In this document: positions 7,878 to 19,971 of the stretch, one piece after another | How positions within the stretch are numbered: the first letter of the stretch is position 1 | Layout of the letters: each line of letters begins with the position of its first letter | Assembly: GCA_038046625.1 (NCBI GenBank) | Contig: JBBSVV010000003.1 | Coordinates: 8,993-72,992, forward strand | Direction of reading: 5' to 3' | DNA length: 64,000 bases | From: an archaeon | GTDB taxonomy: Archaea > Iainarchaeota > Iainarchaeia > Iainarchaeales > Iainarchaeaceae | Notes under the pieces: generated by a model | The model's database searches: none | Seen by the model: the letters and a program-made list of their open reading frames with translations, nothing else | Told to the model about the DNA's origin: nothing | Program-made: the position numbers and the translations under genes

Positions 7878-7941
7878 CCATGCTCCGCACCGGCAACCAC
7901 CCCCTATATGGTTTTAAAAGCCTCGAAGATTTGCTTCTTTT

Positions 7942-13065: not shown

Positions 13066-13215
13066 TCATCGTTCTGAAGTTTTCTGCCCGGACTTTTTTG
13101 CTGCATAAAATTTATTCATGAATTGAGTTTGTGTGCAACCTGTTGTCCTTCAGCTCCGCACCGGCAATGTGCCCCCCTTCAAAATCGCTTTTAAAGCCGG
13201 AATCCAAACTCCTGT

Positions 13216-17786: not shown

Positions 17787-17942
17787 TTACGGGCCTTCGA
17801 ATCCGCATTCTTTGCACTTGTATACGAGGCTTCTTTTGCGCGCATCCAAGCTGCGGTCTATTTTTGTGCCGCATCCAGGGCACTTGAACTCAATGAAATC
17901 GTCCGTGAGAATTTTGTTGGTTGTAATGCATGTTTTTATCAT
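17787..17942 (-). CDS. Zinc-ribbon protein (DUF1610/HVO_2753-like)
   Basis: Manual ORF MIKTCITTNK...FKCPGCG...YKCKECGFEGP, the usual neighbour of aEF-1beta. Confidence 0.88.
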   Translation of the reverse strand: MIKTCITTNKILTDDFIEFKCPGCGTKIDRSLDARKRSLVYKCKECGFEGP

Positions 17943-18127
17943 TGAAAAAACCTTATTTTTAGCGGCATTATTTGTCTAGTATTCTCTATTGAGTTACCTT
18001 TAAAAAGGTTGATTTCAGCCTTTTTCTTTCTTGCGAGAAAGAAAAACGCTGGCGAAAAAGAAAGAGACGGGGCATATTTTTGGCCATAGAACCTTTAATT
18101 AAGTGTTTTTCACCCATTTTTTTGCAC

Positions 18128-18151
18128 GGGCCCGTAGCTCAGCCAGGATAG
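18128..18151 (+). pseudogene. Orphan tRNA 5' fragment (Arg-like)
   Basis: GGGCCCGTAGCTCAGCCAGGATAG is a canonical archaeal acceptor 5' strand plus D-loop, about 30 nt after a tttaatta TATA box; no anticodon or T arm follows. Confidence 0.8.
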
Positions 18152-18154
18152 CGC

Positions 18155-18306
18155 CCACCTCCGCAATCGAATTTTTTCCTAAGACTCGGATTTTCTCGGC
18201 TTAAACCTTTGCACACTTCAACCCCTGCTTTTGGTGCAAAGGGTTTAATGCCTCCAAAACCCGCAAGACGTCTTTCGGAAAAAATTTCATCATTTAGCGG
18301 AGGTGG
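18155..18306. repeat. Long imperfect palindrome (about 150 bp)
   Basis: Nested pairs ccacctccgc/gcggaggtgg, gaattttttcc/ggaaaaaatttc, ttaaacctttgcac/gtgcaaagggtttaa. Confidence 0.85.
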
Positions 18307-18310
18307 TCAA

Positions 18311-18424
18311 ATGGTCGAAATTCCGATTCCAAACAAAGAAGAAATAGATTTAGCAGTAGAGGCTGAAGAGTTGACGGACAGGGAACTGTGGATTCTTAGC
18401 AAGTTTGGAGGTGATTTTGAATGA
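18311..18424 (+). CDS. Small acidic protein (37 aa) coupled to the endonuclease
   Basis: GGAGGTG RBS, MVEIPIPNKEEIDLAVEAEELTDRELWILSKFGGDFE; ATGA overlap with the next gene. Confidence 0.6.
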   Translation: MVEIPIPNKEEIDLAVEAEELTDRELWILSKFGGDFE

Positions 18425-19260
18425 ATCTCGCATCGGCAATCAGCCCTCTAAAATTGTATAATAATGCTTCAGAAGTACCTGCCATTATGGGCTTTGATTT
18501 TTCGTCAGATTTGGCCGAGGTTTGCGGCATCCATGCGGGCGACGGATACCTTCGTAATGACGGAAAAAGAAGGGAGCTAGACATCAGCGGCGGCATTGAT
18601 GAAAAGGAATATTATGATTCGCATGTCGTGCCTCTTTTTGAACGAGTTTTTGGAATAAATATTACTCCAAAATTTTTTCCAAAACGTCATACTTACGGTT
18701 TTGTAATTCGCGACAGAAACATTGTTGAGTTTATGCACTCGCTTGGGTTTCCTTATGGGGCAAAAACTTTCACAGTTTCAGTTCCTGAATTTGTTTCCAA
18801 TTCCAAAAATTTGGATATACTATATAGTTTCATTAGGGGCGCTTTTGACACAGATGGTTGCCTAGCTTTTCAAAAGAAAGTGGGAAGCGGCTATAAAAGT
18901 GAAGTAAAGAGGAAGCACTCCTTTCCTGTAGTTCAGATAAGTATCTGCTCTAAACCATTTTGTGATGGGCTGTGTTCACTTTTCAGGAAAACCGGTTTTA
19001 ACTGCAAAGTTGTCATGCAGAAACCTACTTATGACTATCAACACGTGAAATATGCCTTGTATTTGAGGGGTTATTCTAATCTTAAAAGTTGGATGCGCAA
19101 CATTGGGTTCAAAAATACTTCAAAACTATCGCGCTATGAGGTTTGGGAGAAATTCGGTTTTTGTCCTACTAACATTTCTTTTGAGCAGAGAAAACAAATA
19201 TTAAATAATGAACTTGACCCCAATTCCTTCTATAAGCATGGGCTCGTCGCTAACGGATAA
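18421..19260 (+). CDS. Free-standing two-motif LAGLIDADG homing endonuclease
   Basis: LAEVCGIHAGDG and FIRGAFDTDG; no intein splicing blocks; own GGAGGTGA RBS; AT-rich. Confidence 0.92.
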   Translation: MNLASAISPLKLYNNASEVPAIMGFDFSSDLAEVCGIHAGDGYLRNDGKRRELDISGGIDEKEYYDSHVVPLFERVFGINITPKFFPKRHTYGFVIRDRNIVEFMHSLGFPYGAKTFTVSVPEFVSNSKNLDILYSFIRGAFDTDGCLAFQKKVGSGYKSEVKRKHSFPVVQISICSKPFCDGLCSLFRKTGFNCKVVMQKPTYDYQHVKYALYLRGYSNLKSWMRNIGFKNTSKLSRYEVWEKFGFCPTNISFEQRKQILNNELDPNSFYKHGLVANG

Positions 19261-19310
19261 GCACCCCGCCTTCGAAGCGGGCGATGAGGGTTCGAATCCC
19301 TCCGAGCCCG
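19240..19310 (+). tRNA. tRNA-Arg (TCG), atypical D-arm
   Basis: Acceptor gggctcg/cgagccc, anticodon arm cccgc-cttcgaa-gcggg, T arm gaggg-ttcgaat-ccctc; CCA not encoded. Confidence 0.85.
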
Positions 19311-19488
19311 CTGCACTTTCACGCAGAATCCTTGATTCTGCTGAAACCTGCACTAAAAAGAAAGAGTGCCGGAAAAAGAAAAGACCCCTGTTTCTGGCTC
19401 GGCAAGCCGTGCTTGGCCGGTTTCAATGTGGCCAGGGCTCGCTTTCTTTTAGGCAAGGAATTAATACTCGCAAGTAGTTGTATTTTTG

Positions 19489-19971
19489 ATGAAGCCAAAA
19501 ATATTGCCGCGTGCAAGAAAGTTTTTGAAAAGGCATAAAGGGAAACTAATTATCCCAGTTGGCCTTGGTATTGCGGTTGCGTCCGCTTCTTTTGGCCCGA
19601 AGTTAATTGAGCGCGGTGCAGATTACTTGAACGCGCGCAAGGCGGATGCGATGAGGCAACACAGGCTTGACCTTACCGTTGAGCGGGGGAGGTTTGTTAA
19701 TGAATTTTTTTCAAAGACCGGCGCTGTTCCTGAATCGAGAGAAGATTGCAATGCCCTCTGGGCATATTATTACAATAAAAGCCCCGCCCTGAAAGGCCTT
19801 TGGGAGCCAATTCTCAAAAAAACAAGGGAGGAAAAGCTCCGTGACCGCGTTTTTGTGCAGGAGTTCGGGGATGCAGGCCTGGAGTTTGAATTGGCGGTTG
19901 TGAGGGAAGCGCAACCGGAATTTTTTAAAAAGGCGCTTGCTTTGGACAAAGGCGCAGCGAAAAAGAAATGA
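19489..19971 (+). CDS. Hypothetical protein, basic N-terminus plus one hydrophobic helix
   Basis: ORF composition only. Confidence 0.6.
   Translation: MKPKILPRARKFLKRHKGKLIIPVGLGIAVASASFGPKLIERGADYLNARKADAMRQHRLDLTVERGRFVNEFFSKTGAVPESREDCNALWAYYYNKSPALKGLWEPILKKTREEKLRDRVFVQEFGDAGLEFELAVVREAQPEFFKKALALDKGAAKKK

Follow-up and report, generated by a model that had tools for sequence, protein, structure and literature searches.

Free-standing endonuclease genes that enter another gene and supply a substitute for part of it were described in fungal mitochondria as mORFs, in atp6 of Allomyces macrogynus and in atp6, atp9, cox2 and nad3 of Glomus (PMC3630166). In the cases presented there, a free-standing endonuclease open reading frame (ORF; of LAGLIDADG type in Glomus atp6) lies in the gene, a foreign and diverged gene end is in use, the native end is left as a stub and the endonuclease is held responsible for the mobility (PMC3630166). 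Here we describe a locus of similar design in a stretch of 64,000 nucleotides (nt) of archaeal DNA (GenBank assembly GCA_038046625.1, contig JBBSVV010000003.1, positions 8,993 to 72,992 of the forward strand; the whole stretch is called the window), where a LAGLIDADG gene and a complete tRNA-Arg(TCG) stand in the place of a former tRNA-Arg(TCG) gene. An endonuclease ORF, a foreign, diverged copy in the functional position and a native stub were all found, the foreign copy being an entire gene. The resident gene was probably overwritten by a mobile cassette whose driver is a free-standing homing endonuclease of LAGLIDADG type. The mORFs presented in that report concern protein-coding genes of organelles and replace the 3' (C-terminal) end (PMC3630166), whereas the cassette invades a chromosomal RNA gene of an archaeon from the 5' side, brings a promoter, the entire gene and a trailer, and has part of the native gene deleted. 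We class it as a mORF-like, free-standing homing-endonuclease element whose novelty lies in its target, archaeal tRNA genes entered from the 5' side, and in a rescue gene that bears a promoter.

Among published loci, that of tRNA-Thr(GGU) in Caldiarchaeum subterraneum comes closest, with stub, repeat, ORF and tRNA in the same layout (Sugahara et al., 2012; PMC3293823). An insertion of 1,868 bp there succeeds a 5' tRNA fragment, reaches nt 27 of the working tRNA and contains a repeated region 'a' and, beside the tRNA and on the same strand, an 813-bp ORF 'b'; the population was mixed and included an uninterrupted allele. As published, the locus is explained by an integrase or a transposable element, and the word 'homing' is absent from the text. 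ORF 'b' is classed there only as DNA-binding/recombination by SVMProt (Sugahara et al., 2012; PMC3293823), and the likeness to our cassette is one of layout. In phage T4, SegB is also encoded by a free-standing endonuclease gene among tRNA genes and promotes the inheritance of its own gene and of the flanking tRNA region, but it belongs to the GIY-YIG family and to a phage, and its abstract describes no orphan stub, tRNA overlap or rescue copy (PMC2330249). I-Tsp061I, I-DmoI, PI-PfuI and the TliVMA intein nuclease share the two-domain fold and the conserved acidic residues with the nuclease of the cassette. However, the archaeal enzymes of introns and inteins travel inside self-removing introns or inteins, whereas this nuclease is free-standing and would avoid harm through the replacement gene that accompanies it.

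The persistence of homing endonuclease genes is usually ascribed to their concealment within self-splicing introns or inteins. The cassette would offer another route, persistence in a single-copy essential RNA gene by means of a replacement gene whose promoter and first bases are embedded in the coding end of the nuclease, so that decay is limited to the far side of the nuclease gene. It would be a natural counterpart of the engineered cleave-and-rescue or home-and-rescue drives, Cas9 systems in insects that set a nuclease against an essential gene and provide a recoded copy; the likeness is conceptual only. A literature search with LAGLIDADG or homing endonucleases, tRNA genes and DPANN names found the design in no title or abstract, subscription journals being outside its coverage.

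The tRNA-Arg(TCG) locus with and without the cassette

The window belongs to a metagenome-assembled draft genome (G000) of a DPANN archaeon, which comprises 57 contigs with about 0.99 Mb in total and is 85% complete; homologues of its nuclease carry the source names Diapherotrites and Iainarchaeum. In 22 of 23 genomes of the family, the genes of aEF-1beta and of a zinc-ribbon protein (minus strand) are followed by a promoter and then by tRNA-Arg(TCG). Comparison with a sister species (G001; aEF-1beta 98% identical) revealed an empty site, in which the same 130-nt upstream region leads directly into an intact tRNA-Arg(TCG) and then into the same downstream flank. In pairwise BLAST between the window and G001, homology ended at 18151, which is nt 24 of the tRNA, and restarted at 19435. 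It is directly supported, then, that the resident tRNA-Arg gene has lost nt 25-68 (44 nt) and gained 1,283 nt (18152..19434; this and all features given below with window coordinates are on the plus strand), and what is left over is a 24-nt 5' stub and an 8-nt 3' stub. The former (18128..18151) represents nt 1-24 of the resident, type A tRNA-Arg(TCG), ends in the D loop after GGATAG and matches G001 at 23 of 24 positions. The latter, GGGCTCGC (19435..19442), is the last 8 nt of the resident gene region, where homology to G001 resumes, at nt 69 of the G001 tRNA according to ARAGORN. A TATA box, TTTAATTAA (18094..18102), presumed to be the resident tRNA promoter, now precedes the orphan stub, which starts 25 nt downstream of it, and the cassette; G001 has an identical box with identical spacing before its intact tRNA-Arg(TCG). 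No other tRNA in the assembly has 20 nt or more in common with the stub.

A preliminary description, made from the sequence alone, had proposed a non-splicing LAGLIDADG cassette in a former tRNA-Arg gene and had expected an intact tRNA-Arg at the same promoter in a cassette-free relative. The comparison with G001 agrees with both. The elements that it had listed (the stub, a palindrome, a 37-amino-acid ORF, the LAGLIDADG gene and its 21-nt overlap with a complete tRNA-Arg(TCG)) are all present where it had placed them. It had overlooked the 3' stub at 19435-19442, and its start of the nuclease gene probably has to be moved to 18487 (see below). In order, the insert contains the hairpin, the 37-amino-acid ORF, the LAGLIDADG gene, the complete tRNA-Arg(TCG) and a trailer of 124 nt.

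The complete tRNA (19240..19310), of type B, was found by ARAGORN and scored 52.7 bits (E 4.7e-10) with Rfam. It is the sole tRNA-Arg(TCG) that ARAGORN finds in the whole assembly, in a total of 24 tRNAs that is an underestimate. In an Rfam scan of 17900-19600 at E <= 10 it was the sole match; the stub was not matched as a partial tRNA and no group I intron was found. Its sequence is identical at 66 of 72 positions to that of G015 and at 66 of 71 to that of G008, both of another genus, and at 55 of 78 to that of the sister G001; both bases of the 5:68 pair are changed when compared with other type B genes. The tRNA borne by the element is, on these identities, of a foreign sequence type, and a whole rescue tRNA is supplied, beyond a 5' end alone. 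Its D arm is unlike that of the displaced tRNA, in accordance with the earlier proposal that the replacement 5' end differs. The first 21 nt of the tRNA (19240-19260) are the last 21 nt of the nuclease ORF, and a TATA-like box, TTAAATAA (19201..19208), lies within this ORF 31 nt before tRNA +1. The box was present in all orthologues, decayed ones included, 29-31 nt ahead of tRNA +1, and is presumed to be the promoter of the linked tRNA. Behind the tRNA, the trailer (19311..19434) is missing from the empty site of G001; it is non-native and arrived with the tRNA. Over its first 50-60 nt (19311-19370) it has 91-96% identity with the trailer that follows a different stable-RNA gene (G000 contig C11:11860-11926; G001 contig C39:13059-13110). 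This 50-60-nt element, common to the new tRNA-Arg and the C11 stable-RNA gene, includes an 8-bp hairpin.

The nuclease, its recurrence beside tRNA genes and its decay

The LAGLIDADG gene (18421..19260) has an open frame of 279 amino acids and probably starts at the ATG at 18487, giving 257 amino acids, because residues 1-22 are disordered and overlie a promoter motif. The assignment was made from fold, profile and alignment. An AlphaFold2 model (predicted local distance difference test, pLDDT, 90.3; predicted template modelling score, pTM, 0.86) gave a two-domain LAGLIDADG protein, with disorder confined to residues 1-22 and to the last five, which are encoded in the tRNA overlap. The model predicts the fold of the superfamily, two alpha-beta-beta-alpha-beta-beta-alpha domains with the LAGLIDADG helices at the interface. 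At E <= 0.001 Foldseek gave 140 matches in the PDB, led by the TliVMA intein nuclease, I-Tsp061I, PI-PfuI, PI-SceI and I-DmoI; E values to the archaeal intron- and intein-encoded enzymes named above were 1e-10 to 3e-7 and template modelling (TM) scores 0.73-0.79 when normalised to I-DmoI and I-Tsp061I. A profile of 40 family sequences also led to the TliVMA intein nuclease (E 4e-7). In 40 aligned homologues G40-D41-G42 and D143/D145-G146 were invariant, giving one acidic site in each LAGLIDADG motif, and we take the invariant acidic residues of both motifs to be the metal ligands. The Pfam family PF14528 (LAGLIDADG_3) scored 12.5 bits in the window protein, below the cut-off of 22.5; it was found in many homologues, and six other free-standing copies in G000 pass the cut-off.

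The design is not confined to tRNA-Arg, and its recurrence is directly supported. G000 has at least eight free-standing LAGLIDADG genes, six of which adjoin a tRNA on the same strand: Arg-TCG, Gly-TCC, Gly-CCC, Leu-TAG, Glu-CTC and Ala (contig C41). At tRNA-Leu(TAG), the first 20 nt of the resident gene are followed by a 2.3-kb insert and then by a tRNA that differs from that of G001 at nt 9-46 and is identical from nt 47; the site is empty in G001. Thus one homologous site is filled in G000 and empty in G001 at both tRNA-Arg and tRNA-Leu, which is the presence/absence polymorphism of a homing gene. Flanking target sequence was co-converted at both, the whole tRNA at tRNA-Arg and nt 9-46 at tRNA-Leu. 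The partial tract at tRNA-Leu(TAG) is closer to the picture of a replaced 5' end that the preliminary description had drawn for tRNA-Arg. A 292-amino-acid ORF (L011:562-1440; G000 contig C7, minus strand) also lies in the tRNA-Leu(TAG) insert and runs with its 3' end into the orphan stub of tRNA-Leu. In the sister genome the tRNA-Gly(TCC) locus has another gene in the place of the nuclease and no stub.

In metagenomes, a scan based on the alignment yielded 80 loci; a single-protein scan of metagenome contigs found no relative and a scan of genome contigs gave only 2 loci. Adjacency was counted in the 63 loci with at least 150 nt after the match, allowing a tRNA start within -40 to +260 nt. A same-strand tRNA stood at the ORF end in 52 of the 63, of which 32 were called Arg-TCG and 9 as selenocysteine tRNA ('SeC'); the latter are probably miscalled intron-bearing genes, and the 11 loci where no tRNA was called may have intron-rich tRNAs beyond the reach of ARAGORN. 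The stop codon of the nuclease lay within the tRNA in 35 of the 52 loci, so LAGLIDADG ORFs that overlap tRNA 5' ends, which the preliminary description had suggested searching for, are the rule in this family. TATA-like hexamers started at -40 to -31 in 33 of the 52 and at -30 to -21 in 21, compared with 1-8 in the other 10-nt bins.

A same-strand orphan 5' stub was found upstream in 11 of the 71 loci with at least 300 nt of upstream sequence; the opposite strand gave 4 of 71, including three near-identical loci that show one and the same complete tRNA. Ten of the 11 stubs lie 40-250 nt before the nuclease gene, and nine of those ten end in the D loop, the tenth (L174) ending near nt 31. L172 and L180 of this set are near-identical and L113 is doubtful. 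With the two events of G000 included, the stub junctions are at tRNA nt 19-24 in all except L174. In two loci of Woesearchaeota (L072:3232-3353 and L073:2509-2620), the nuclease-linked tRNAs seem to have an extra D-loop intron directly after GGATAG/GGAT, at the same position as the stub junctions.

At the tRNA-Arg locus of 22 family genomes, a full or nearly full nuclease gene was present in three (G000, G012 and G018) and a remnant in five (G004, G015, G020, G002 and G007). All five remnants retain only the tRNA-proximal, C-terminal end of the protein (residues 141-249, 208-252, 229-257, 236-253 and 225-253 of 257). The tRNA-Glu(CTC) paralogue gave the same picture, with a full cassette in G000 and only residues 318-358 of 365, beside the tRNA, in G001. 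That the tRNA-proximal end of the ORF is retained is directly supported, and we read this as due to the tRNA promoter, the TTAAATAA box, lying there. The earlier suggestion that the overlap ties the endonuclease to an essential RNA is thereby supported in a more specific form: the tie includes the TATA box of the tRNA within the 3' end of the ORF, and it is this end that decayed copies keep. In genus g2 (G020, G002 and G007; L067, L068 and L070, about 1960-2700), two small genes unrelated to the nuclease have taken the place of most of its gene, one an ORF of 70 amino acids and the other of 150 amino acids with a DSGAT motif that looks retropepsin-like by eye; they follow the same promoter motif as the nuclease.

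Proposed mechanism and competing explanations

Cleavage and homing by this nuclease are inferred from sequence comparison, and the following scheme is proposed. The nuclease would cut cassette-free tRNA-Arg genes in or near the D arm, because the junctions of the orphan stubs cluster at tRNA nt 19-24, and repair of the break would copy the cassette from a carrier allele. The cell would survive through the rescue tRNA, whose D arm is written differently and is presumably not cut, and the carrier would be protected by the rewritten D arm together with the split target. Since the TATA box and the first 21 nt of the tRNA are inside the 3' end of the nuclease ORF, the tRNA would be lost if that end were deleted. 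The orphaned resident promoter is placed so that it could transcribe the stub, the hairpin and the small ORF, with the hairpin sequestering the ribosome-binding site of the ORF. The nuclease has a promoter motif of its own that also stands ahead of radA, mcm, a recJ-like gene and nurA, and this would make its expression coincide with replication and recombination; the locus would have three transcription units in all.

Several observations weigh against this scheme. A donor was not found when 41 relatives were searched with the trailer, the last ~60 nt of which stayed unmatched, and the closest cassette, that of G012, encodes a protein only 76% identical. At neither junction is there homology to account for a clean homing event. 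The first insertion may thus have come about by illegitimate end-joining, and its tie to this nuclease is circumstantial; the long native flanks could serve a later spread between close relatives. The type of the tRNA does not track the nuclease, as types A and B both occur with and without a nuclease gene. G018 has a near-canonical D arm beside a nearly full nuclease gene, and G012 has a full cassette in the same place without a 5' stub. The missing stub of G012 and the untracked tRNA type caution against a simple reading in terms of resistant and susceptible alleles. Furthermore, several of the 14 family genomes in which no nuclease gene was detected at the tRNA-Arg locus are rearranged or cut by contig ends there (G021, G009, G016, G019, G017 and G010).

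The alternative that survives best, although we regard it as unlikely, is that the cassette arrived by ordinary recombination or horizontal transfer and that its LAGLIDADG protein is domesticated and stably linked to the tRNA, for example as a DNA-binding regulator, and is no active homing enzyme. The dN/dS ratio (nonsynonymous to synonymous substitution rates) against the G012 orthologue was 0.08 over 249 codons, with dS near saturation, and 331 homologues were found at 45% identity or more, nearly always at a tRNA. Purifying selection of this strength and conservation as wide as this are also compatible with a domesticated host function, although the low ratio stands among the evidence for the nuclease as well. 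The promoter motif in common with host repair genes, the junctions that lack homology and the appearance of WhiA, a transcription factor of LAGLIDADG fold, among the Foldseek matches point in the same direction. However, the gene is patchy among close relatives (3 full, 5 remnants and 14 none in 22) and its copies decay, the sister species is empty at two loci, both motifs have invariant acidic residues, genuine homing enzymes head the list of fold matches, and orphan stubs recur at one position of the tRNA. These observations favour a cassette driven by a homing endonuclease.

The model published for the tRNA-Thr locus of Caldiarchaeum would make the locus the remnant of an integrase-type element (pNOB8- or SSV-like) in a tRNA gene, and we consider this very improbable here. 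Such integrations are marked by partial duplication of a tRNA end, and the model itself is presented in PMC3293823. The insert of 1,283 nt, however, has only the small ORF and the LAGLIDADG gene; these two frames are the only supported ORFs of at least 60 amino acids in it. No integrase was present in any cassette inspected, and neither a tyrosine or serine recombinase gene nor att direct repeats were found at the locus. The stub does not repeat the new 5' end exactly, and besides this imperfect repeat there is a deletion of the tRNA interior.

A shade less credible still is the version of the preliminary description, in which the cassette, inserted at nt 24/25, contributes no more than a recoded 5' end that continues into the native 3' part. 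It was suggested by the order of stub, ORF and overlap, and the tRNA-Leu(TAG) gene does share its 3' part from nt 47 with the sister. At tRNA-Arg this claim has to be given up: the tRNA differs from the resident type over its full length (55/78), the foreign trailer separates it from the native flank, and resident nt 25-68 are missing.

The locus is not an intron, since 44 nt of the old gene are gone and no bulge-helix-bulge (BHB) pairing was found, and we give hardly any weight to an archaeal BHB intron or split tRNA in which the upstream fragment is an exon spliced to the downstream part, which the preliminary description had itself allowed as a way to be wrong. These lineages are rich in tRNA introns, also in the D arm, and archaeal rRNA introns carry LAGLIDADG genes, some of which were among the fold matches. 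However, the downstream tRNA is complete by itself, no pair of exons makes up a full gene, and C5 of the stub would oppose A68 of the downstream tRNA. The pairing between the would-be splice junctions (-25.1 kcal/mol) was that of shuffles (mean -25.0 kcal/mol; 99 of 200 as good), G012 has the cassette without the stub, and neither a group I intron nor another Rfam family was found at the locus. An assembly chimera of two strains (the preliminary description had named misassembly in general), conceivable in a metagenome-assembled draft of 57 contigs in a region where Logan contigs break at repeats, merits just as little weight, and the locus is no misassembly: Logan contigs from runs X1 and X2 (two studies, possibly the source samples, and an assembler different from that of the draft) cover 17950-18257, 18230-19374 (19319 in X2) and 19345-19650 and bridge both junctions (18151/18152 and 19434/19435) with 0 differences, and no k-mer common to both sides that could cause a false join exists at either junction.

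On a wider scale, DPANN archaea might hold a large undescribed class of natural cut-and-rescue drives, a generalisation that we offer tentatively and on which we lean slightly towards doubt. Each LAGLIDADG lineage would be specialised on one tRNA gene, cut it in the D arm and overwrite it with its own promoter and a rewritten tRNA, hijack the orphaned promoter and be wired to a recombination/replication regulon, leaving orphan fragments and turnover of tRNA sequences behind and perhaps selecting for D-arm introns. If this is true, such elements would help to drive the disruption of tRNA genes that has been a matter of long debate for archaea. The design seen here offers a concrete origin of orphan tRNA fragments, of the abrupt exchange of tRNA sequences between close relatives and possibly of introns at non-canonical places in tRNAs. 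It also provides a large set of LAGLIDADG enzymes whose tRNA-gene targets can be predicted.

The hairpin module, the promoter motif and neighbouring observations

Directly behind the stub, a conserved structured hairpin of 152 nt (18155..18306) was supported by folding and covariation. Its minimum free energy was -62.6 kcal/mol (z = -3.5) and 0 of 200 shuffles were as stable. The consensus of 24 copies has 30 pairs, with compensatory changes at 16 of the 30. GGAGG is invariant in the 24 copies, 5-8 nt before the ATG of the small ORF, and in the outermost stem CCACCTCC-like bases pair with it, while the bases beyond co-vary between copies. In the window it is the anti-Shine-Dalgarno-like CCACCTCC that pairs with GGAGGTGG, the Shine-Dalgarno sequence of the small ORF. 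The structure suggests translational occlusion of this ORF; the 16S 3' end was not found in the assembly, and the Shine-Dalgarno reading is based on the motif and a modest enrichment (99 of 891 ORFs vs 29 of 891 in a control window). The small ORF (18311..18424) encodes an acidic peptide of 37 amino acids with the motif ..TDRELWIL..FGGD.., was kept in 22 of 32 related loci, and its stop overlaps the ATG at 18421; it matched no Pfam family and gave no usable Atlas match. Hairpin and small ORF occur in four copies in G000 and in 17 of 22 other genomes of the family, and a LAGLIDADG gene of varying subfamily follows the module in 21 of 32 loci. A TATA box stands 25-45 nt before every hairpin inspected, and in the window this is the orphaned tRNA promoter.

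The putative promoter of the nuclease (18429..18464) was recognised by the recurrence of its motif, CGCATCGGCAA..CCC, with a TATA-like box (18457-18464) 22 nt before the ATG at 18487; both are within the 66 nt that precede this ATG. The exact 11-mer CGCACCGGCAA has 13 copies in about 1 Mb, where the chance expectation was estimated at less than 1. In the form CGCACCGGCAA(n4)CCC, with a TATA box 10-20 nt further on, it stands ahead of radA, mcm, a recJ-like DHH gene, nurA, a 499-amino-acid gene in the herA-nurA cluster, a Bro-N gene, an RHH gene and the tRNA-linked free-standing LAGLIDADG genes. From these sequence contexts the motif looks like a signal of a replication/repair regulon, and we infer that the nuclease is co-regulated with recombination and replication genes. 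The motif that it has in common with radA, mcm and nurA points to a way in which a selfish nuclease could be timed to act with the repair machinery of its host. Sites of the motif in the window are 7886-7900, 13157-13175 and 18429-18446, with others on G000 contigs C13, C32, C44, C2 and elsewhere. The radA, mcm and recJ-like genes each have a LAGLIDADG intein (Pfam Intein_splicing and LAGLIDADG_3; C13:7499-9979, C32:14361-18047 and C44:8478-11405). Before tRNA-Leu(GAG) (C15:13293-13373), there is a variant of the motif and a peptide that resembles a LAGLIDADG C-terminus (..QRRQILKGLLSPSSFYS), a possible remnant that tblastn did not confirm.

Further observations concern the tRNA genes and cassettes of G000. 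Downstream of the LAGLIDADG cassette of contig C49 (C49:1-200, minus strand), a short ORF with an intein C-terminal-like end (..ILVHNS) lies at the contig end and is possibly the C-half of a split or intein-bearing gene. Plain tRNA genes, Gly-CCC and another, were missed by ARAGORN and are visible by eye (C41:29213-29284 and C41:14497-14572), and intron-bearing Arg genes were miscalled as SeC or Gly. In the genes of tRNA-Tyr, tRNA-Ala and tRNA-Ser, long introns (C7:8582-8823, C7:20707-20914 and C21:6825-6994) are filled with hairpin repeats of the CTTTTTCTTTC...GAAAGAAAAAG type, and repeats of this type also flank many tRNA genes, including window positions 18022-18050.

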